From assembly GCA_964636715.1 (NCBI GenBank), contig CAZWTH010000231.1, forward strand, positions 70-64,069: a stretch of 64,000 nucleotides of DNA, given 5' to 3'. The DNA is from an uncultured Solibacteraceae bacterium. Lineage in GTDB: Bacteria; Acidobacteriota; Terriglobia; Bryobacterales; Bryobacteraceae. The notes beneath the pieces are model-generated. The model saw only the letters and a program-made list of their open reading frames with translations, had not been told where the DNA came from and made no database searches. How positions within the stretch are numbered: position 1 is the stretch's first letter; each line of letters begins with the position of its first letter. This document shows positions 3,512 through 45,441 of the stretch, in pieces. A program made the position numbers and the translations under genes.

Positions 3512-5005
3512 ATGTTCATGTCTCAAACTATTTCCGCCCGCCGCGCCGCCGGGATCGTATTCGCGGGGCTGATCGCCCTTCCAGCCGGCAGTCTCCTGTT
3601 TCAATCCAGAGGCGCCGACGCCACGCCGCCGGTCCGGATGACCAAAGCTGAAGATCACCAGCGGACCATGGAACTGCTGGGTATCAAGGAACTCCGCAAG
3701 GGCAAGGCAGGCAGAGACAAGACCGACCCCAATTTCGCGAATTACGACGAGTCGAAAGCGAACCCGTTTCCGAACCTTCCGGACCCGCTGACGCTGAAGA
3801 ACGGCAAGAAGGTCAGGACGGCCGCCGATTGGTGGAATAAGCGCCGTCCCGAAATCGTGGAAGATTTCGACCGCGAAGTCTATGGCCGCGTGCCGAAGAA
3901 CGTTCCGAAAGTGAAGTGGGAAGTCGCGTCGACCACGAACGGAAAACGCGGTGACGTGGACATCGTCACCAAACAGTTGGTAGGCGTGGTGGATAACTCG
4001 ATGGATCCCGATATCGAAGTGAAGATCGCGCTCTCTCTCACGACGCCCGCGCACGCGACGGGACCGGTGCCGGTGATCATGCAGTTCGGTGGCTTTGGAG
4101 GGGGACAGAACGCGGCTTCGGGGCCGCCCTACGATCCGAACGCGTTCAACGCGCCGCCCGCCGGGCGCGGACCTGTCGCGGCATTCGGCGCATCCGGCGC
4201 GGGCCGTGGCCCAGGATTTGGCGGCGGCCGCGGACCCACAGGACCCACGTGGCAAGATCAGGTTCTCGCGAAAGGCTGGGGTTATGCCACACTCAACCCC
4301 GGCAGCATTCAGGCGGATAACGGCGCCGGGCTGACCCTCGGCATCATCGGGCTCTCCAACAAAGGTCAGCCGCGCAAAGCCGATGACTGGGGCGCTCTGC
4401 GCGCGTGGGCCTGGGGCGCGAGCCGCGCGATCGATTATTTCGAGACCGACAAGGCGGTGGACGCGAAGCATATCGCGATCGAAGGCCATTCGCGGTATGG
4501 CAAAGCGGCGATCGTCGCTCTCGCCTACGAACCGCGTATGTGGACGGCCTACGTCAGTTCCTCCGGCGAAGGCGGCGCGAAGCTGCATCGCCGCAACTGG
4601 GGCGAAATTATCGAGAACGTTGCGGGGATTGACGAATATCACTGGATGGCCGGCAATTTCCTGAAGTACGCGGGACCGCTCGGATGGAACGATCTGCCGG
4701 TGGATTCGCACGAGCTGGTGGCGATGATCGCGCCGCGCCCGGTGTTCCTGAGCGCGGGCAACGGCGGCTACGACGTCGAGCCCGGCGGCGATAGCTGGGT
4801 GGACGCGAAAGGCACGTTCCTCGCGGGCGCCGGAGCGGGTCCGGTGTACCGGCTGCTCGGGAAGAAAGATCTCGGAACTACTGAATTTCCGAAGATCGAA
4901 ACGCTGATCGCGACGGGCGACATCGCATTCCGCCAGCATTCGAGCGGACACACGGACGTACCGAACTGGCCGTATTTCCTGGATTTCGCGTCGAAGCACA
5001 TGTAG
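3512..5005 (+). CDS. Carbohydrate esterase family 15-like (glucuronoyl esterase)
   Basis: Signal-anchor N-terminus. The nucleophile motif GHSRYGKAA is characteristic of bacterial CE15, and the C-terminal ...HSSGHT supplies a candidate catalytic His. A paralog lies at 51621-53021. Confidence 0.65.
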   Translation: MFMSQTISARRAAGIVFAGLIALPAGSLLFQSRGADATPPVRMTKAEDHQRTMELLGIKELRKGKAGRDKTDPNFANYDESKANPFPNLPDPLTLKNGKKVRTAADWWNKRRPEIVEDFDREVYGRVPKNVPKVKWEVASTTNGKRGDVDIVTKQLVGVVDNSMDPDIEVKIALSLTTPAHATGPVPVIMQFGGFGGGQNAASGPPYDPNAFNAPPAGRGPVAAFGASGAGRGPGFGGGRGPTGPTWQDQVLAKGWGYATLNPGSIQADNGAGLTLGIIGLSNKGQPRKADDWGALRAWAWGASRAIDYFETDKAVDAKHIAIEGHSRYGKAAIVALAYEPRMWTAYVSSSGEGGAKLHRRNWGEIIENVAGIDEYHWMAGNFLKYAGPLGWNDLPVDSHELVAMIAPRPVFLSAGNGGYDVEPGGDSWVDAKGTFLAGAGAGPVYRLLGKKDLGTTEFPKIETLIATGDIAFRQHSSGHTDVPNWPYFLDFASKHM

Positions 5006-37704: not shown

Positions 37705-39729
37705 ATGTCCGATAATCCTCTTCTTTCCATTGAATTTGAGGTCCCTTTCGACCAGGTGCGCCCCGAGCACGTCGTTCCGGGAATCCGGCAGCTTCTCGCG
37801 GATTCTCAGGCGCGCATTGACGCCATCGCGGCGGACGAATCGGAGAGAACCTTCGCCAACACTATGCTGGCGCTCGAACAGGCGACCGAGCCCCTCGGCT
37901 ACGCCATGGGTATTGTGCGCCATCTGGAAGCAGTGGCTACATCGCCCGCCCTGCGCGCCGCCTGGAACGAAGTCGAACCAGCAACCAGCGAATTCTTCTC
38001 CCGCATTCCTCTCCACGAAGGCCTCTGGAAGCAACTGCGCCGTTACGCCGAAACGAACGAAGCCAAATCGCTCACCGGGACGAAGAAGCGCTTCCTGACC
38101 AAGACGCTCGATTCCTTCCGCCGCAGCGGCGCGGAGCTGGACGCGGCCGGCAAGAACCGCCTCGCCGAAATCGACGTGGAATTGGCGAAATGCACGACAA
38201 AATTCGCCGAAAATGTTTTGGATTCCACCAACTCATTTGAGCTGATTATCACGGACGAGTCGAAGCTCGAAGGCCTTCCCCCCAGCGCCCTCGCGGCGGC
38301 GCGCCAGAGCGCGGAGTCGAAAGGTCAGGCCGGCTGGAGGTTCACCCTCCAGGCGCCCAGCTATATCGCGGCTATCACTTATCTGGCGGATGCCGGCATC
38401 CGCGAACAGCTTTATCGCGCCCACATCGCGCGGGCCACGGAAGGCGAGCGCGACAATCGCCCCCTGATCGGCCGGGCTCTCGAACTACGTCGCGCGAAAG
38501 CTACCCTGCTGGGTTTCGGCGACTTCGCCGATTTTGTCATCTACGACCGCATGGCCCACACCGGCGCGCGCGCCCAGGAATTCCTCGGCGATCTCGAGGC
38601 CCGCACCCAGCCCGCCTTCGAACGCGAGAACGCCGCGCTCGAAGCTTTCGCCGGCCGCCGTCTGGAGCCCTGGGATATCGGTTACTACGCCGAGCTCCAG
38701 CGTCGCAAACTCTACGATTTCGACGAAGAGCAATTGCGCCCCTACTTCCCCGCCAAACGCGTGGTGAGCGGGATGTTCGGGATCGTCGAAAAGCTTTACG
38801 GCATCCAGGTGAAACGGCGCGAGGGCGTGCCGGTGTGGCATCCCGACGTCCGCTATTACGAAGTGCGCGACGCCGGCGGTCTCCTGCTTGGCGCCTTTTA
38901 CGCCGACTGGTTCCCGCGCGAAACCAAGCGCGATGGCGCCTGGATGGACGGGTTCATCACCGGCGTGGATGCGCCGGATCGCTTCGAGCCGCACGTTGGG
39001 TGCGTTTGCGGGAATCTGACCCCGCCCCTCGGCGACAAGCCGGCTCTGCTCACGCACCGCGAAGTCGAAACGATTTTCCATGAGTTCGGGCACCTGCTGC
39101 ATCACGTGCTGAGCCGCGTGGAAGTGAAGAGTCTGGCGGGCACGTCCGTCGCCTGGGATTTCGTCGAACTGCCGAGCCAGATCATGGAGAACTGGTGCTG
39201 GGAGCGCGAAGCGCTCGATATGTTCGCGCGGCACTACCTCACGGACGATCCTATTCCCGAAGACCTGTTCCGCAAGATGGTGGCGGCGCGAACGTACCGG
39301 AGCGCCAACGGTCAGATGCGGCAGCTCGGCTTCGGCGTGGTCGATCTCAAACTGCACCGCGAATACGATCCGGCGCGCGATGGCGACGTGTGCCGCTATG
39401 CGCGCAATATTCTTCAGGAATTCAACCCGGCCGAACTCCCGCGGGACTACTCCATGATCGCGGCGTTTACTCATCTCTTCGCGAGCCCGGTGGGATACGG
39501 CGCGGGCTACTACTCTTACAAGTGGGCCGAGGTCCTCGACGCCGACGCCTTCTCGCGCTTCCGAGTGGAGGGCATCTTCAGCCGCGAAGCGGGCGGCGCT
39601 TTCCGGGAGACGATTCTTTCGAAGGGCGACAGCGACGATCCGGCCGAACTCTACCGCCGCTTCATGGGCCGCGATCCGGATCCGAACGCGCTGCTGGTGC
39701 GCTCCGGTCTGCTGCCGGCCGCATCCTGA
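37705..39729 (+). CDS. M3-family zinc oligopeptidase (oligopeptidase A / Dcp-like)
   Basis: HEFGHLLHH zinc motif, length and overall M3 architecture. Confidence 0.85.
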   Translation: MSDNPLLSIEFEVPFDQVRPEHVVPGIRQLLADSQARIDAIAADESERTFANTMLALEQATEPLGYAMGIVRHLEAVATSPALRAAWNEVEPATSEFFSRIPLHEGLWKQLRRYAETNEAKSLTGTKKRFLTKTLDSFRRSGAELDAAGKNRLAEIDVELAKCTTKFAENVLDSTNSFELIITDESKLEGLPPSALAAARQSAESKGQAGWRFTLQAPSYIAAITYLADAGIREQLYRAHIARATEGERDNRPLIGRALELRRAKATLLGFGDFADFVIYDRMAHTGARAQEFLGDLEARTQPAFERENAALEAFAGRRLEPWDIGYYAELQRRKLYDFDEEQLRPYFPAKRVVSGMFGIVEKLYGIQVKRREGVPVWHPDVRYYEVRDAGGLLLGAFYADWFPRETKRDGAWMDGFITGVDAPDRFEPHVGCVCGNLTPPLGDKPALLTHREVETIFHEFGHLLHHVLSRVEVKSLAGTSVAWDFVELPSQIMENWCWEREALDMFARHYLTDDPIPEDLFRKMVAARTYRSANGQMRQLGFGVVDLKLHREYDPARDGDVCRYARNILQEFNPAELPRDYSMIAAFTHLFASPVGYGAGYYSYKWAEVLDADAFSRFRVEGIFSREAGGAFRETILSKGDSDDPAELYRRFMGRDPDPNALLVRSGLLPAAS

Positions 39730-39752
39730 TTCATTGCTATCCTGAGGGTGCG

Positions 39753-40352
39753 ATGTTTCTGAAAATCCTGTCGCACCCGGTTTTCGCCAATCTCAACTTC
39801 CACATGCCGATGGTGGTGGATCTTTCGCATCCGCTGATCATGCTGACGGGCGATAACGGGTCGGGCAAGTCCACGCTTCTGCATTCGATTCAATATGCGC
39901 TGAAAGGCGAGCGAGCCGAAGGCTATATCTACCGGCTCGACCGCGGCGACGTCAAGCCCGGCAGCGTATTTCTCTTCGACGCCGAGCAGCATAATCCGCG
40001 CATGCAGCTCGAAGTGTTTCGCGACCAGCCGGAGATGCTGGAATTTCTGCAGCTGGCCAGTCACGGCCAGGTGATGCTCGCCATGTTCCGGACGAATTTT
40101 CCGTCGCTCGAATCGGGCACTACTCTGCTGCTCGATGAGCCGGAGATGGCGCTCTCGGTTTCCAACCAGCGCCGCATTCTCAAAATGCTGCACGAGCTGG
40201 TGGATCAGCGCGGCTTCCGTATCATCTGCGCGACGCATTCGCCGGTCCTGATCGAAGATCCGTCCACCTACGTGATCAACCTCGATAACCACATCAACCG
40301 CAACGTCCCGCTCGAATCGTTCGGGGTCGAAGGGGCCAGCACCATTCAGTAG
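39753..40352 (+). CDS. Minimal ABC/SMC-type (AAA_21-like) ATPase, 199 aa
   Basis: ATG at 39753 after GAGGG. Walker A GDNGSGKST, signature-like ASHGQ, Walker B LLLDEPE and H-loop ATHSP. No extra domain. The ORF-track start at 39195 overlaps the peptidase gene and is rejected. Confidence 0.7.
   Translation: MFLKILSHPVFANLNFHMPMVVDLSHPLIMLTGDNGSGKSTLLHSIQYALKGERAEGYIYRLDRGDVKPGSVFLFDAEQHNPRMQLEVFRDQPEMLEFLQLASHGQVMLAMFRTNFPSLESGTTLLLDEPEMALSVSNQRRILKMLHELVDQRGFRIICATHSPVLIEDPSTYVINLDNHINRNVPLESFGVEGASTIQ
40271..40352 (+). repeat. Direct repeat copy 1 (the functional 3' end of the ATPase gene, including its stop)
   Basis: 82 nt, cgtgatcaacctcgataaccacatcaaccg...accattcagtag, identical to 42017-42098 except G at 40334 versus C at 42080. 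Confidence 0.9.
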
Positions 40353-40377
40353 TGAGGACTGGTACGATACAAGTTCC

Positions 40378-41031
40378 ATGAGTCTGGAGGCAGAGGTGGC
40401 GGCGGTGAATGCAGCGGGATTCGAGATAGCCAACTCAAATGCCGGGAAGGCCGTGGATGTATATTTCTCGGCCGATGTCGAGACGGACGGCCCAATTCCG
40501 GGACCATACTCCATTCTCTCTTTTGCTCTTGTCTACGCAGGCTCGTTTGACGGTGAACAATTTGTGAAGCCAGATCGCGAACCCATTGTCTTTTATCGGG
40601 AGCTGAGACCGATATCAGCAAATTTTGAGCCGGAAGCGCTGCGAGTCAACGGCCTCGACAGGGAAAGATTACTGCGGGAGGGTGTTTCGCCGGAAGATGC
40701 GATGACCGAGGCCGCTCACTGGATCAAGCAGAGAGCTGGGGCTGGCCGTCCCGTACTAGTCGCCTATCCACTCAGTTTCGATTGGTCGTGGCTGTATTGG
40801 TATTTCGTGAAGTTTTCCGCAAGCGGGTCTCCGTTTGACTACTCGCGGTGCTTCGATATTAAAACCGCAGTGGCGGTCAAGGCGCGAATACCGATTTCCA
40901 ATGCGGGCAGGTCCCGGTTGATCCCCTCACTACAGAGCTATCGAGTCCACACTCACCACGCCGTTGAAGATGCAATTGAGCAGGCGGAAATTTTCGCAAA
41001 CGTTTTCGAATGGGGAGGAATCGGTGGGTGA
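40378..41031 (+). CDS. DEDDh-family 3'-5' exonuclease (DnaQ/RNase T fold)
   Basis: Exo I ADVETDG, Exo II LVAYPLSFDWSWL and Exo III HHAVEDAIEQAEIF (H-x4-D). Possible alternative GTG start at 40396, preceded by GGAGG at 40386-40390. Confidence 0.75.
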   Translation: MSLEAEVAAVNAAGFEIANSNAGKAVDVYFSADVETDGPIPGPYSILSFALVYAGSFDGEQFVKPDREPIVFYRELRPISANFEPEALRVNGLDRERLLREGVSPEDAMTEAAHWIKQRAGAGRPVLVAYPLSFDWSWLYWYFVKFSASGSPFDYSRCFDIKTAVAVKARIPISNAGRSRLIPSLQSYRVHTHHAVEDAIEQAEIFANVFEWGGIGG

Positions 41032-42013
41032 ACTTTTGGCCGCCCGCCGCAATGAGACCAATCTTCGCCTTGCGGAAATGCAGAAACGGCTCGCCGCAGC
41101 GGAAAAGCTTGTTAGCGGAAAGGCCTGCGTTTATGCGACGGGCTCATTTGGCCGCGGGGAAGCGAGCAGGTTCAGCGACCTGGATCTATTCATTGTTGGT
41201 GGTTCCGAGCAGATTGGTGGCAGACGCCTGCTTTCGAGGCTCGACGAAATTTGCGTGAAGGCCGACCTTGTCGAAGTCACTCGGGACCTGAAGATTCCGG
41301 AGTTCTCGGGAGACGGCGAGTACCTGGAGCACTACACTGTTGGGGAACTTATTAGAGCACTGGGGACGCCGGAGGATGATTCGAGCAATGCCTTCACCGC
41401 TCGCCTTCTTCTGCTGCTCGAGAGCCAGCCGCTGGTGGGGGCAGAAAGCTATAGGGCACTGACATCCGAGGTCATCGCCGCCTACTGGCGCGATTACGAG
41501 AATCACAGGAACGAGTTCATGCCGGCTTACCTGGCGAACGACATCCTGCGCCTGTGGCGTACTTTCTGTGTCAATTACGAGGCGCGCACATCCTCCGATC
41601 CGCCCCCTAAAAAGGCAAAGAGAAAACTGAAGAACTATAAGCTCAAACACAGCAGATTGTTGACCTGTTATTCAGCGCTGCTGTATTTGCTCGCGGTCTA
41701 CTCCAGAAACAAAACCGTTCACCCGGAAGATGCGGTCGCAATGATTCAAATGACTCCAACGCAACGGCTGGAATGGCTGATGACGCAGGAATGTTTGTCC
41801 GAAGCGAGGGAGACGGTGGCGGCGGTCATCGAGCGATACGAGCAATTCCTGCGGCAGACGGAAATGCCGGAAGAAGATCTCGTGAAACAATTCATGGAAA
41901 GGGATACCGCCAGAAAATTCATGGCGTCCGCCCCTGCATTTGGAGATTTGGTCTACTCCCTGTTATCAAGGCTCGGTGGTAACGGACGCTTCTTCCGTCT
42001 TCTTGTTGTCTAG
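41024..42013 (+). CDS. Pol-beta-superfamily nucleotidyltransferase with helical C-terminal domain (GlnD/GlnE-like signature)
   Basis: GTG at 41024 preceded by GGGGAGGA (41012-41019), overlapping the exonuclease stop by 8 nt. Active-site pattern TGSFGRGEASRFSDLDLFIV (G-S-x-G-R-G-E ... D-x-D). About 250 aa of all-helical tail. The ORF-track ATG at 40964 is also possible. Confidence 0.7.
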   Translation: MGELLAARRNETNLRLAEMQKRLAAAEKLVSGKACVYATGSFGRGEASRFSDLDLFIVGGSEQIGGRRLLSRLDEICVKADLVEVTRDLKIPEFSGDGEYLEHYTVGELIRALGTPEDDSSNAFTARLLLLLESQPLVGAESYRALTSEVIAAYWRDYENHRNEFMPAYLANDILRLWRTFCVNYEARTSSDPPPKKAKRKLKNYKLKHSRLLTCYSALLYLLAVYSRNKTVHPEDAVAMIQMTPTQRLEWLMTQECLSEARETVAAVIERYEQFLRQTEMPEEDLVKQFMERDTARKFMASAPAFGDLVYSLLSRLGGNGRFFRLLVV

Positions 42014-42016
42014 AGC

Positions 42017-42098
42017 CGTGATCAACCTCGATAACCACATCAACCGCAACGTCCCGCTCGAATCGTTCGGGGTCGAAGGCGCCAGCACCATTCAGTAG
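42017..42098 (+). pseudogene. Direct repeat copy 2: orphan duplicate of the last 27 codons + stop of the ATPase gene
   Basis: 81/82 identity to 40271-40352. Starts 3 nt after the NTase stop. No upstream coding continuation in that frame. Confidence 0.85.
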
Positions 42099-42152
42099 CC
42101 ACTCCCTTGCGCGCTGCCTTCCCTGGCGATAGCATGACTAGCGAGGGCTTTC

Positions 42153-44132
42153 TTGCGTTTTCGCCATCTTTTCCTCCTTTTCGCCCTGGCCTGGACCGCC
42201 TCCGCGCAGGATCGCCCATTCGGTTCCGGCCTTTACCAGGTCATGCAGAACGCCGGATGCCCGCTCTGCCATAACCCGAACGGCGTCGCCTCCGCCACCC
42301 GAATCCACTTCCCTGAAGCCGATGCCTCGCCCGAAAAGATCGAAGCCTTCGGCCGATCCCTCGTCGTTGTCGTCGATCGCAACAACCCCGAGGCATCTCT
42401 GTTACTGAACAAACCCACCGCCCGGATTCCACACACCGGCGGCGAACGAATTAAACCGGGTAGTCCCGAAGAGGCCGTCCTCAAAGCCTGGGTCAACCGC
42501 CTCGCCCGCCTCTCCGGCCCCGACCTCGCAGCCGCCCTGAAGTATCGCGAAATGGAAAACGCGGGCAGTGGCGAAAGCCGTCCGCGCGTGGATCTCCGCC
42601 GGCTCACGCACAGCCAGTACAACCACACCGTTCGCGACCTCCTTGGCGACACGACCCAGCCATCCAATCAGTTCCCGCCCGAAGACTTCGTCAACGGCTT
42701 CCGCAATCAGGGACAGGCCGAGACCATTTCTCCGCTCCTGATGGAAAACTACAGCACCGCCGCCGAGCGCCTGGCGAAAAGCGCCTTTCGCGGCGGCGAC
42801 GCCAGTCTGATCCCCTGCAAACCTTCCGCCGCCTGCCGCACCCGCTTCGTGAAGGATTTTGGCCTGAAGGCGTTCCGGCGTCCGCTCGAACCGACCGAGC
42901 AGAAACGGTACGAAACCCTGATGATGCGCGAAAAGGATTTCACCGCCGGCGCTCAGCTCGTCATCGAAGCGATGCTGCAATCCCCCGACTTCCTCTTTCG
43001 TTTCGAAGAAACGTCATACCCGGCCTGGAAACCGTACGCGGCCGCGAGCCGGCTTTCTTATGCCCTCTGGGACAGCATGCCGGACGCCGAGCTGTTCGCC
43101 GCCGCTGCTCGCGGCGATCTGAACACCCGGCAGGGCGTCGATCGACAGGCCCGCCGCCTGCTCGACGACCCGCGCGCTCATGAAGCCCTCAACGAATTCG
43201 TCAGCCAGTGGCTGCGGTTCGATCGCGTTCTCACCGCGTCGAAAGACCGCCGCAAGTACCCCGATTTCACTCTCGAAACCGCCGAATCGATGACCGAAGA
43301 AGCACGAGTCTTCGTAGGCGATCTCGTCTGGAACGATCGCAACTTCATGGATCTGTTCAGCGCAGGCTACACGTTCGCGAACGCGGACCTCGCCGCCATC
43401 TACGGCATCAAACCGCCGGCGAAAGAGTTCGGGAAGGTCAGCTTTCCCGCGGATTCCGAACGGGCCGGCGTTCTCGGCCAAACTCTTTTCCTCGCTCTCA
43501 CCGCGAAGCCTGAAGACTCCTCGCCCACCGCGCGCGGTCTCTTCGTGCGCGAACAATTCCTCTGCCAGCACGTGCCGCCTCCGCCACCCGGCGTGAATAC
43601 CAATCTGCCGCCGGTGACCGAAGCGAAGCCGCAAACCAATCGCGACCGCATGACTGAGCACGCCAGCAATCCGATGTGCGCCTCCTGTCACAAGCTGATG
43701 GACCCCATCGGCTTCGGTCTCGAAAAGTTCGATTCCGTCGGCGCGCGTCGCGATAAATACACGCTGACCTTCGCAACCGGACGCGGCGGCGGAAACGGCA
43801 ATGGCAACAATCGCCCCGCCACAAAGAAGATCGACCTGGATCTCAACACCGCCGGAACCGTAGCCGGCCTGCCCGATTCATCATTCTCTTCGCCCGCTCA
43901 GCTCGGCGCCATTCTTGCGAAGAGCGCGCAGTGCCAGGAATGCGTTGTGAAACAATATTTCCGGTACACCACGGGACGCATGGAAGTTCCGGCCGACCGT
44001 CCTGTCATCACCCAGGCGCTGGACGATTTCCGGAAATCGCAATATCACTTTAAAGATCTGATGCTGTCGCTGGTTCGGTTGCGGGAATTTCCCGGGTCAG
44101 GAGAGATCGCCGATGTCGGAAATCATCACTAA
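42153..44132 (+). CDS. PSCyt / DUF1592-DUF1588-DUF1585 multidomain protein (paralog 2)
   Basis: TTG start with GAGGG upstream. Signal peptide [27 protein letters not shown] and [19 protein letters not shown]. Confidence 0.8.
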
Positions 44133-45441
44133 GCGCGTCCGGCTGTCGCGCCGTTCCGTCCTGAAAGGAATCACCGCCGCCGGCGCTCGCATCGCCATCG
44201 GACTGCCGCCGCTCGTTTCCATGTTCAATTCGGCGGGCACGGCCTACGCCGCCGAATCGAAGCCGATCGAGAACCGCTTCGTTCTCTGGTTCAACGGCAA
44301 CGGCATCCCGGAAGGCGCATGGATCCCGTCCGAAGAAGGCCCCGATTACCGGCTGACGCACTGCCTCGCCCCACTCGCCCAGCATCGCGACGATATCCAC
44401 GTGATCAGCGGCCTCGATAACGCCGCCGCCATGATTCCCGGGCCCGGCGTGGGCAATGGCCACCATAATTCCATGGCGGGGCTCATGACCTGCACGCAGT
44501 TCAGCGGGCGCGGCGCGAGCGGGCCTTCGATCGATCAGGCAATCGCGGCGCGCATTGGAGGCGACTCGCGTTTCCGCTCGCTCCAGATCGGCGTTTCGCA
44601 GGAATCCTTCGGCGAAAGCATCCAGCGCAACATGAGCTGGGCCGGATACGAGAAGGCGCTGCCGCCGGAGATGATCCCGCACCGACTCTTCGACCGCCTG
44701 TTCGGCGCCCGCGAAGAAGGGTGGGCCGACCGTAAACGCAGCATTCTCGATGCGATTCGCGAGGACGCGGACGATCTGAAGAAGAAGCTTCCCGCCGATG
44801 ATCGCCTTCGCGTGGACGAGCACCTGGCCGGTGTACGCGATATCGAGCATTCGATCGCGGCCCTGCCGCCCGAATATCGCCACGTCGATCCGCCGGATTT
44901 CGAAGGCGACCCCAAGGACTGGCCGCGCATCGCCCGCCTGCAGAGCGATCTTCTGGTTCAGGCGCTCGCCACGCACCAGACTCGCGTCGCGTCCTACATG
45001 CTCACGAAGTGCCAGGGTCTTTCGCGTTTCCCGTGGCTCGGTTACACGTCCGCACGGCATCACGATTACACCCACACCATGGGCAAGCTTGGAGCCGATG
45101 GCGTGGAAGGCCAGAAGGTGCTGCGCGACATCTGCAAGTGGCATGTCCAGGAGTTCTCATATCTCCTCGATCGTCTGAAAGCGGTTCCGGAAGGCGACGG
45201 CTCCGTTTTCGATCACACGCTGGTTGCATTCGTTCACGAACACGCTGAGGCGGATCCGCATAAGAACACCGGCCTAGCCATGATTCTTGCGGGCGGCGTC
45301 CCGAAGCTTGCCAAGGGCACGCACACGCGCGTCACCGGCACCGTGGGCGATCTCTATCTGACGCTGACGGATGACGTCCTCAACGTAGGCCTCGGCAAAT
45401 TCCCGACCGCGACCCGAAGAGTGGCCACGGTGGTGGCGTGA
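44113..45441 (+). CDS. DUF1552 domain protein (paralog 2)
   Basis: [28 protein letters not shown] Tat-like N-terminus. Collinear similarity to 23036-24397. 20-nt overlap with the upstream gene. Confidence 0.8.

Follow-up and report, generated by a model that had tools for sequence, protein, structure and literature searches.

GlnE, DrrA, and ANT each place a single NMP on a hydroxyl group, and GlnD, GlnE, and DrrA/SidD constitute writer–eraser pairs. DEDD and 2H enzymes act as processors and healers of RNA 3′ ends beside template-independent nucleotidyltransferases, and 2H enzymes such as Acb1 break down immune nucleotide signals. Cap18 is reported to hydrolyze the 2′–5′-linked products of its partner nucleotidyltransferase and to be inactive on ordinary DNA or RNA (bioRxiv 10.1101/2025.03.04.641389); selective 2′–5′ phosphodiesterase activity is known only for the Sm, Vc, and Ec Exo enzymes (bioRxiv 10.1101/2025.03.04.641389). 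The locus described here lies in a stretch of 64,000 nucleotides (the window) from an uncultured Solibacteraceae bacterium, assigned to the Bryobacteraceae by GTDB, and encodes a Cap18-like exonuclease directly upstream of a nucleotidyltransferase (NTase) with a GlnE/DrrA-like fold. The pair is a widespread uncharacterized module by which nucleotides are probably first added and later removed; a search of the literature on the component families, their combinations, and the candidate system PDC-M70 returned no published description of it.

A mobile cassette behind a native ATPase gene

The locus consists of the following features:

39753-40352, + strand: minimal ABC/AAA_21 ATPase, 199 aa (Pfam AAA_21, 1.2e-17)
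40271-40352, + strand: direct repeat copy 1, 82 nt, the functional ATPase 3′ end, stop codon included
40353-42016, + strand: low-GC two-gene cassette, 1664 nt (1.66 kb), bracketed by the 82-nt repeat
40378-41031, + strand: Cap18-like DEDDh exonuclease/phosphodiesterase, 217 aa, the proposed eraser
41024-42013, + strand: Pol-beta-superfamily NTase with a C-terminal helical domain, 329 aa, GlnE/DrrA-like fold, the proposed writer
42017-42098, + strand: direct repeat copy 2, in which the ATPase 3′ end recurs, displaced and non-coding

All three open reading frames are present on the plus strand with the motifs that a first-pass annotation had described, those of the ATPase being GDNGSGKST, ASHGQ, LLLDEPE, and ATHSP. 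The end of the locus had been placed at 42098, which is correct as the end of repeat copy 2 but not as the NTase stop (42013). The two repeat copies are identical at 81 of 82 nt, including an exact-match stretch of 63 nt, and homology to the downstream DNA of relatives picks up again at 42104, past the second copy. The repeat, which duplicates the ATPase 3′ end, shows that the pair entered behind a complete gene for the ATPase. The GC content of the cassette is 0.547 as against 0.612 for the window; the annotated foreign composition holds for both the exonuclease and the NTase (GC3 of 0.58 and 0.65, respectively), whereas the ATPase is host-like, with a GC3 of 0.78 that equals that of the gene for the M3 peptidase. 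The two genes in the interval 40353-42016 came in by horizontal transfer, as a cassette set right behind the stop codon of the native gene for the ATPase.

Homologues of the ATPase (more than 120 cluster representatives with 82–98% identity) are nearly all exactly 199 aa long and always have a Peptidase_M3 gene directly upstream, while the genes on their 3′ side vary. The ATPase is a lineage-core Bryobacteraceae gene, unrelated to the pair and merely its insertion target. The first-pass annotation had grouped all three genes into one unit and compared it to anti-phage systems that combine an ATPase with a separate nuclease. A three-gene defense system, with the ATPase as sensor and the nuclease as effector in the manner of PARIS, Septu, or Gabija, would be in keeping with the co-orientation and close spacing of the genes, with the matches of the ATPase to generic AAA_21, AriA, PtuA, and mad3 models (Pfam and PADLOC profiles), and with the existence of a second genome with the same trio. 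However, among 80 genome loci the ATPase adjoins the pair in a single one, and this sole other trio (L010) occupies the orthologous site of insertion in a related member of the Bryobacteraceae; other relatives keep the order of M3 peptidase and ATPase without the pair, and both the host-like GC3 of the ATPase and the position of the repeat set it apart. Because the ATPase is so rarely found beside the pair and its own neighborhoods are M3-linked, the trio is not a unit, and because the ATPase lies outside the module, the analogy to PARIS, Septu, and Gabija does not apply. The co-occurrence data effectively refute the three-gene system, which we regard as extremely improbable. The neighboring ATPase shares AAA_21/AAA_15 profiles with PARIS (AriA/AriB), Septu (PtuA/PtuB), and Gabija (GajA/GajB), but its 199 aa leave out insertion and effector-binding domains, no Toprim, HNH, or UvrD partner is present, and the conserved co-occurrence of ATPase and nuclease that defines these systems and Lamassu is not seen here. 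Telling the lineage-core ATPase apart from the mobile cassette is in itself a gain in annotation.

In the close relative L178, the same flanks enclose 563 nt of unrelated DNA, so that the cassette site is otherwise occupied, and the position just 3′ of the ATPase gene is a recurrent cargo slot. The foreign composition extends to the family at large, the GC content of the pair being below that of its flanks in 76 of 76 loci, with a mean difference of 8.2 points. That a flanking repeat generally marks the cassette was considered and rejected, as the repeat is absent at L001, L003, and L004 and occurs only at the ATPase site (in the window and at L010). A 1743-nt Logan contig with an identical NTase was examined as a candidate circular form; it corresponds exactly to 40304-42046 and is no evidence for a circle, since assembly at k=31 with a break at the exact repeat of 63 nt would give the same contig. 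An Rfam search at the cassette detected neither an ncRNA nor a tRNA attachment site, the nearest tRNA being 6 kb away, and no sigma-70-like promoter for the cassette was found on the plus strand, where site counts are at chance level and uninformative. Among 98 flanking ORFs, a Pfam census gave a flat picture made up mostly of housekeeping genes, with no enrichment of defense or mobility genes beside the pair, and a defense-island or mobile-element context was rejected on this ground. A phage origin was dismissed as well: just 2 of the 2.9 million IMG/VR viral contigs carry the pair, the structural search of BFVD returned no significant match, and PHROG contained no match for the NTase.

Family and fold of the two enzymes

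By sequence and by fold, the nearest characterized relative of the exonuclease is Cap18 from E. coli upec-117 (PDB 7T2S). A phmmer search of the PDB scores 7t2s at 1.3e-19 as compared to 4e-8 for RNase T, and Foldseek aligns 7t2s with a TM score of 0.82, an rmsd of 2.7, and 32% identity, the next match, RNase T, reaching a TM score of ~0.6 at an rmsd >5. Both scores place the protein closer to Cap18 than to canonical 3′–5′ exonucleases, with RNase T and Rv2179c-like exoribonucleases as runners-up (Pfam Rv2179c-like, 1.9e-7), and PADLOC PDLC00753, the "Exonuclease" model of CBASS operons, is matched at 2.5e-35. The DEDDh catalytic set is complete, and its residues (D33-x-E35, D135, and H193-x4-D198) are invariant in 85 homologues. 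Also common to Cap18 and the present exonuclease are the proline following D-x-E and a "PF" phenylalanine that aligns with the dimer-stacking phenylalanine; of the substrate-contact residues reported for VcExo, mapped here through the EcCap18 alignment only, Pro15 and Phe120 correspond to the conserved Pro39 and Phe153, whereas Asn97 corresponds to an invariant Pro131. As Pro131 replaces the sugar-contacting (ribose-contacting) Exo II asparagine of Cap18 and RNase T, the specificity of the exonuclease may differ from that of Cap18. A further difference is an N-terminal extension of ~25 residues, which is disordered in the model. Like Cap18, the exonuclease is encoded beside a Pol-beta-type NTase, but this partner is GlnE-like and the setting is not a CBASS operon: no SMODS/CD-NTase or effector, and no Cap2/3 or HORMA/TRIP13, accompanies the pair in the window and in 80 genome loci. 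A Cap18-type phosphodiesterase acting on small substrates is a better reading of the exonuclease than an effector that degrades DNA. If the writer–eraser reading given below is right, Cap18-type exonucleases would gain a second genomic home, one much commoner than CBASS.

The NTase most likely starts at a GTG codon at 41024, preceded by an SD-like GGAGGA at 41014-41019, and thereby overlaps the exonuclease stop by 8 nt. It contains GSFGRGEASRFSDLDLFIV and displays the Pol-beta motif G-[GS]-x9-13-D-x-D, invariant among homologues (G40, S41, D52, and D54) and followed by a helical domain that includes a conserved, very basic helix (K195-R211). Pfam assigns it to NTP_transf_2 (2.6e-6) and, less clearly, DUF294 (0.006), and no homologue was detected in the PDB at the sequence level. 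In Foldseek searches with the AF2 model (pLDDT 91.6), GlnE (1v4a, E 8.7e-4), DrrA (6yx5_B, TM 0.49), and ANT(4′) are the top matches, a remote similarity that is in keeping with the annotated GlnD/GlnE-like character at the level of fold; NCBIfam GlnD models match at 0.004-0.04 only. With GlnE, GlnD, and DrrA(SidM)-SidD, the NTase has in common the G-S...D-x-D core, the helical domain, and the genetic coupling of a proposed writer to a proposed eraser activity, and GlnE and DrrA are its best whole-protein structural matches. However, identity to these proteins is 10–14% and TM scores stay below 0.5, and the proposed eraser is a separate DEDDh or 2H phosphodiesterase rather than an HD, NTase-like, or PP2C domain. 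From structural matches as weak as these (best E 8.7e-4, TM 0.36-0.49), the acceptor of the NTase cannot be deduced.

Other NTase systems are more distant. No SMODS/CD-NTase Pfam match was obtained for the NTase, which thus does not group with the cGAS/DncV-like enzymes of CBASS; CD-NTase and OAS structures rank low in Foldseek (CdnC at rank 43 with a probability of 0.21), and in the profile search CdnD aligns along no more than the generic Pol-beta core of 60 residues (E ~2e-3). MNT-HEPN modules (MntA/HepT, type VII toxin–antitoxin) have a minimal NTase of ~100-140 aa, in contrast to the 329 aa with a large helical domain found here; the MntA model scores 0.065, and no HEPN neighbor was found. 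The PADLOC candidate PDC-M70 component A is matched by the present NTase at 1.1e-23 and, along most of the protein, by all NTases of the family at 1e-22 to 1e-27. As these scores are modest (~80-94 bits on a 355-position model), the NTase represents a family related to PDC-M70A and not the same one, and its partners (exonuclease, 2H, and 2H-methyltransferase) match no PDC-M70 component. No papers mentioning PDC-M70 were found.

Pairing, distribution, and exchange of the hydrolase

The exonuclease gene lies directly upstream of the NTase gene in 79 of 79 testable species genomes, usually with overlapping ORFs. Together with the foreign GC content and the hydrolase pairing in a sister clade, this supports the coupled, accessory, and uncharacterized module that the first-pass annotation had seen in the two genes; of the two neighborhood questions raised there, the co-occurrence of exonuclease and NTase is borne out and the adjacency of an AAA_21-like ATPase is not. 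Clustering of all ORFs from 80 loci yielded the pair, antisense shadow ORFs, and small synteny groups only, with no recurrent third gene or effector. Distribution is sporadic: a pattern scan found the pair in at least 198 of 185,579 species genomes, among them members of Acidobacteriota, Alphaproteobacteria, Binatia, Myxococcota, Verrucomicrobiota, and other groups. In some Acidobacteriaceae the chromosomal position is stable, 12 loci having one flanking gene in common. Across phyla, identity amounts to ~60% for the NTase and ~70% for the exonuclease. The searches retrieved 4,286 related protein clusters for the exonuclease and 2,497 for the NTase.

Among 82 loci with more distant NTases, the exonuclease is present in 28 (divergently oriented in 6), a 2H phosphoesterase is encoded directly downstream in 47, and the remaining 7 leave no room to test for a partner. 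The 2H partner carries HxT twice in its consensus and matches Pfam 2_5_RNA_ligase2 (8.6e-7) and, weakly, Acb1 (0.049); it is sometimes fused to an N6-adenine methyltransferase. While the exonuclease gene precedes that of the NTase, the 2H phosphoesterase gene follows it. The conserved unit is an NTase plus a phosphodiesterase, the proposed eraser having been swapped non-homologously in the sister clade. This exchange of DEDDh for 2H constitutes a natural experiment that points to the removal of phosphodiesters, possibly in 2′–5′ linkages. Two fusions were observed, an in-frame exonuclease–NTase fusion (P0479/L091) and a TIR(ThsB-like)–NTase fusion with a 2H ORF after it (P0502/L090).

Possible functions of the pair

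The pair may be an antagonistic nucleotidyl writer–eraser that acts like a toxin–antidote or conflict module, a reading to which we assign an even chance. The NTase would use NTPs to make a nucleotidyl phosphodiester, and the exonuclease would hydrolyze the bond thus formed. The product might be a short 2′–5′-linked oligonucleotide or a nucleotide on a hydroxyl of a conserved cellular target such as an RNA 3′ end or a protein, and the module would be self-contained, with no separate effector, in the manner of the DarT/DarG, DrrA/SidD, or GlnD writer–erasers. We propose that this antagonism keeps the product below a harmful or signaling threshold in normal cells. Were this true, two enzymes would suffice for a minimal system whose output is the nucleotidyl mark or 2′–5′ oligonucleotide itself. 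Obligate pairing, with no other gene recurring, and the structural proximity of the NTase to single-NMP transferases argue for this reading, as do the displacement by 2H enzymes, the kinship with Cap18, the fusions, the mobile signature, and the invariant catalytic residues. Against it stand the conservation of both proteins, which is unusual for conflict genes, the housekeeping flanks, the near-absence from viral contigs, Pro131, and the weak structural matches of the NTase. With the DarT/DarG writer–eraser toxin–antitoxin system and the NTase toxins MenT and AbiEii, the pair has in common the format of a small, overlapping two-gene mobile module among housekeeping genes and an NTase never encoded without its hydrolase partner at testable loci; obligate pairing, overlapping genes, isolated islets, and foreign GC content are its genomic proxies of toxin–antitoxin character. 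In contrast, there is no homology to components of DarTG, MenT, or AbiE, and gene order differs between clades.

To judge from sequence, a role of the pair in conflict or defense is plausible. The defense function that had been suggested for the locus thus stands as plausible for the pair, in view of the distant match of the NTase to PDC-M70A, the strong match of the exonuclease to the CBASS model, and the TIR fusion, but not for the ATPase as a member. A more specific scenario, possible though tentative, is free-standing immunity or addiction: the GlnE-like NTase would steadily make a toxic or growth-arresting 2′–5′ or otherwise non-canonical product that the Cap18-type exonuclease (2H in sister systems) would steadily destroy, and loss or inhibition of the eraser, for example by phage shut-off or loss of the cassette, would lead to arrest. 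Such modules would then have been the source from which CBASS took Cap18, or CBASS the source for the modules.

A DEDDh or 2H enzyme and an NTase could equally work in sequence on RNA ends. Under such cooperative 3′-end repair or turnover, the hydrolase would trim or heal RNA or tRNA ends and the NTase would re-add nucleotides, countering RNA-targeting toxins. DEDD and 2H enzymes are known in RNA 3′-end processing alongside template-independent NTases (context in PMC9503650), the runner-up relatives of the exonuclease are RNases, and the basic helix of the NTase fits as well; however, the closest relative, Cap18, is reported to be inactive on DNA and RNA (bioRxiv 10.1101/2025.03.04.641389), in its fold the NTase resembles GlnE, DrrA, and ANT more than it does CCA-adding or poly(A) polymerases, the fusions of relatives to TIR and to an N6-adenine DNA methyltransferase fit poorly, and neither ligase nor kinase is associated with the pair in 80 loci, which leaves repair unlikely. 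Distinctly unlikely, too, is a synthase of nucleotide second messengers whose product a hydrolase keeps below threshold, on the model of CBASS and Cap18; the effector of such a system would be encoded elsewhere or, in some relatives, be the fused TIR. The precedent of Cap18, which is reported to degrade an NTase intermediate (bioRxiv 10.1101/2025.03.04.641389), speaks for it along with the TIR–NTase fusion, the resemblance to PDC-M70A, and the weak Acb1 match of the 2H partner, given the action of such enzymes on immune nucleotide signals; yet no effector or receptor gene recurs beside the pair in 80 genome loci, the NTase lacks CD-NTase character in both Pfam and structural ranking, and two genes alone make up the mobile unit. 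A housekeeping regulator outside any genetic conflict, either reversibly nucleotidylylating a host protein in the style of GlnD/GlnE or modifying a small molecule (an antibiotic) like ANT, we consider very unlikely. The fold similarity to GlnE, DrrA, ANT, and AadA, the high conservation of both proteins, the housekeeping neighbors, and the stable position in some Acidobacteriaceae would suit this role, but sporadic distribution, consistently foreign GC content, insertion that varies between close relatives, and a TIR fusion within the family would not, and an eraser that reverses the modification would make no sense for antibiotic resistance.

The antagonistic writer–eraser reading, like its rivals, concerns genes that are carried by culturable soil bacteria (Bradyrhizobium spp., Microvirga aerilata, and Paraliomyxa miuraensis), which makes genetics on the pair feasible.

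The cassette and its insertion site

The first-pass annotation had described three plus-strand open reading frames, for an ATPase, an exonuclease and a nucleotidyltransferase (NTase), as one module ending at 42098. All three are present in the window. Every ATPase motif quoted was found in the 199-aa ORF, and the DEDDh motifs D33-x-E35, D135 and H193-x4-D198 in the 217-aa ORF; these five residues are invariant among 85 homologues. The coordinate 42098 marks where the second of two 82-nt direct-repeat copies ends, the NTase itself stopping at 42013.

Features of the locus
39753-40352, + strand: ATPase gene, 199 aa (AAA_21, 1.2e-17)
40271-40352: direct repeat copy 1, the 3′-terminal 82 nt of the ATPase gene, stop codon included
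40378-41031, + strand: exonuclease gene, 217 aa, five DEDDh residues
41024-42013, + strand: NTase gene, 329 aa, GTG start
42017-42098: direct repeat copy 2, beginning 3 nt past the NTase stop

The GTG at 41024 is the best start for the NTase: GGAGGA lies 5 nt upstream, the overlap with the exonuclease stop is 8 nt (GTGGGTGA), and both the N-termini of homologues and a database protein of identical sequence (329 aa) fit this position.

The exonuclease–NTase pair is an inserted cassette. In a close relative (L178), whose ATPase is 97% identical to that of the window, collinearity with the window extends over 39178-40352 (86.8% nucleotide identity) and resumes at 42104 (81.7%), spanning the 659-aa gene that follows. 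Where the window has 1746 nt of cassette plus repeat between these flanks, L178 (1178-1740) carries 563 nt of unrelated DNA and has no repeat. A related Bryobacteraceae MAG (L010) has the cassette with a 66-70-nt version of the repeat (2367-2436 and 4126-4195), and the DNA past the repeat is unrelated. These differences identify the position just 3′ of the ATPase stop as a cargo slot whose content varies between conserved flanks, occupied by the cassette in the window and L010 and by the unrelated 563 nt in L178. Copies of the repeat resemble each other more closely within a genome (81/82 identical in the window) than between genomes (60-74/82), a pattern that suggests either gene conversion or several independent, site-specific insertions at the same position. 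Since no flanking repeats were found at three other pair-bearing loci, the repeat belongs to this site and not to the cassette, within which no recombinase gene was found. One public Logan contig, 1743 nt long, encodes a 100% identical NTase and corresponds to window 40304-42046. It was considered as a circular form and rejected as such, 1743 nt being the exact expectation of a k=31 assembly that breaks where the repeat copies match exactly over 63 nt; a second assembly thus shows the repeat structure independently.

The ATPase does not belong to the module, as follows from the distribution of its homologues, its constant neighbour, its rare adjacency to the pair and its codon-position GC. More than 120 cluster representatives, 82-98% identical and nearly all exactly 199 aa long, are annotated as Bryobacteraceae or Acidobacteriota. 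A Peptidase_M3 gene lies directly 5′ of the ATPase wherever the upstream side is present (loci L006, L007, L009 and L010, a JGI contig and the window); in L008 and L178 the upstream ORF is cut by the contig end, that of L178 being collinear with the M3 gene of the window. The DNA 3′ of the ATPase differs among loci, and the pair is found there only in the window and L010. The M3 peptidase and the ATPase share a GC3 of 0.78, whereas the exonuclease and the NTase have values of 0.58 and 0.65. The proposal that the three genes form one system fares accordingly: the ATPase adjoins the pair in one of 80 NTase-encoding species genomes, namely L010, the orthologous locus, and a single three-gene system is very improbable indeed. 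The peptidase (an oligopeptidase) and the ATPase, separated by about 20 nt (window 37705-40352; L006-L010 and L178), form a conserved pair of their own, in which the minimal ABC/AAA_21 ATPase is without a transporter or effector partner.

Conservation, partner exchange and fusions

Searches with the NTase recovered 2,497 related clusters (353 at 50% identity with E < 1e-30), and those with the exonuclease 4,286. Screening one genome per species located the NTase in at least 198 genomes, mostly of Acidobacteriota; other carriers include Bradyrhizobium, Xanthobacteraceae, Rhodopseudomonas, Binatia, Myxococcota, Verrucomicrobiota, a spirochaete and a Saccharimonadales MAG. The exonuclease lies immediately 5′ of the NTase, usually overlapping it, in 79 of 80 retrieved loci, the single exception having its NTase at a contig edge. 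No third gene recurs beside the pair in these loci, and the Pfam families of 98 flanking ORFs show a flat distribution, mostly of housekeeping genes. The GC content of the pair is below that of its flanks in 76/76 loci (mean gap 8.2 points; Wilcoxon p = 4e-14), and only two IMG/VR contigs carry it. The pair therefore behaves as a small, horizontally moving islet, like toxin–antitoxin modules and unlike residents of defence islands or phages.

Among more distant NTases (31-45% identical), collected by a profile scan of metagenomes with neighbours classified by HMMs, the phosphodiesterase partner is replaced non-homologously. Of 82 loci, 28 have a Cap18-like exonuclease, which in six (L140, L153, L157, L159, L162 and L163) is divergent, head to head with the NTase on the opposite strand, so that adjacency is retained even without a shared operon; seven hold too little DNA for the neighbour test. 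The other 47 have a different gene in its place, which starts only a few bases from the NTase stop. Both H-x-T motifs that characterise the 2H phosphoesterase superfamily are present in its product (consensus AHITvrGPY ... PH.TiYDG). The best case passes the Pfam 2_5_RNA_ligase2 cut-off (8.6e-7, 29.6 bits), and there is also a weak match to Acb1. The protein comes in two lengths: roughly 200 aa, and roughly 740 aa where it is joined to an adenine methyltransferase of the Eco57I/N6_Mtase type, which matches PADLOC MTase_II at 1e-102 to 1e-131. The long architecture, found in a sister clade (L100 3968-7153, L104 4001-7257, L106 563-3839 and eight similar loci), is unusual, joining a nucleotidyl eraser to DNA-type methylation. 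Family representatives also include an in-frame exonuclease–NTase fusion (P0479, locus L091) and an NTase with an N-terminal ThsB-like TIR domain (P0502, L090 2999-4913), 3′ of which an ORF with 2H motifs (PHVTVRY ... FHVTVYDG) runs off the contig. Partner exchange and fusions thus leave a GlnE-like NTase plus a phosphodiesterase as the invariant theme. Members of both eraser families are known to cut 2′-5′ or signalling phosphodiesters: Cap18 on one side and, on the 2H side, viral and AKAP7 2′,5′-phosphodiesterases and Acb1.

Affinities of the two enzymes

The top profile for the exonuclease is PADLOC PDLC00753, built from CBASS-operon exonucleases (2.5e-35). PDB 7T2S, annotated as 'E. coli upec-117 Cap18 3'-5' exonuclease', is matched by sequence (1.3e-19) and by fold (TM 0.82, rmsd 2.7 Å, 32% identity), RNase T being the next fold match (TM ~0.6). 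The name Cap18 originates in PMC9122588. According to a 2026 preprint (bioRxiv 10.1101/2025.03.04.641389), CBASS Exo/Cap18 enzymes leave ordinary DNA and RNA intact and selectively hydrolyse 2′-5′ oligoadenylate and the 2′-5′-linked linear intermediates made by the partner cGAS-like NTase, thereby setting the activation threshold. When its contact residues are transferred through the EcCap18 alignment, Pro39, which follows D-x-E, and the stacking residue Phe153 are retained, whereas the Exo II Asn, which contacts the terminal sugar in Cap18, RNase T and other DEDDh enzymes, is replaced by an invariant Pro131 (codon at window 40768-40770). The dipeptide Tyr130-Pro131 occurs in 85/85 aligned NTase-associated exonucleases and may mark a different substrate.

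The NTase has no homologue by sequence in the PDB. The label 'GlnD/GlnE-like' holds at the level of fold, from Foldseek matches to a confident AF2 model (pLDDT 91.6), and only as a remote similarity: the best match is the GlnE N-terminal domain (E 8.7e-4), followed by the DrrA AMPylation domain (TM 0.49/0.48), ANT(4'), the GlnE C-terminal domain, AadA and MntA, while CD-NTase, OAS and HalB rank low. All family NTases match the PADLOC candidate model PDC-M70A (1e-22 to 1e-27); PDC-M70 is not mentioned in the searchable literature.

A possible writer and eraser

The chances seem about even that the pair constitutes an antagonistic writer and eraser. The NTase would make a nucleotidyl phosphodiester, either a short 2′-5′-linked oligonucleotide or an NMP on a hydroxyl of a conserved target, and the exonuclease would remove it, so that accumulation would be set by the balance of the two activities. 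As no effector is linked, the product itself probably harms or arrests the cell, which would make the pair toxin–antidote-like. The analysis shows the insertion, the obligate pairing, the partner exchange, the fusions, intact active sites in both enzymes and the affinities to Cap18 and to GlnE/DrrA; antagonism, product chemistry, toxicity and any role against phages are inferred. Several points weigh against antagonism: the structural matches of the modelled NTase are weak, the Asn-to-Pro change appears to lie within the sugar pocket of the exonuclease, conservation across phyla is unusually high for conflict genes, and the flanking genes are housekeeping.

The enzymes might instead cooperate in RNA 3′-end healing and re-addition; with Cap18 enzymes reported to spare ordinary RNA, this seems unlikely. 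A signal synthase with a thresholding hydrolase would follow the Cap18 example, acting through an unlinked effector, and is quite unlikely. A physiological GlnD-like regulator or a modifier of small molecules is improbable. No description of the exonuclease–NTase pair was found in the searchable literature. Both components come from known superfamilies, and the antagonistic logic would have precedents in CBASS Cap18, GlnD/GlnE, DrrA/SidD and DarTG. The pair, and not the three-gene system of the first-pass annotation, constitutes a cleanly testable candidate.

Two overlapping genes lie 3′ of the cassette (42153-45441). Their products, one of 659 aa with the CxxCH-type motif CPLCHNP and one of 442 aa, resemble a DUF1592/DUF1552-type pair. 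Such pairs are common in Acidobacteria and Planctomycetes.
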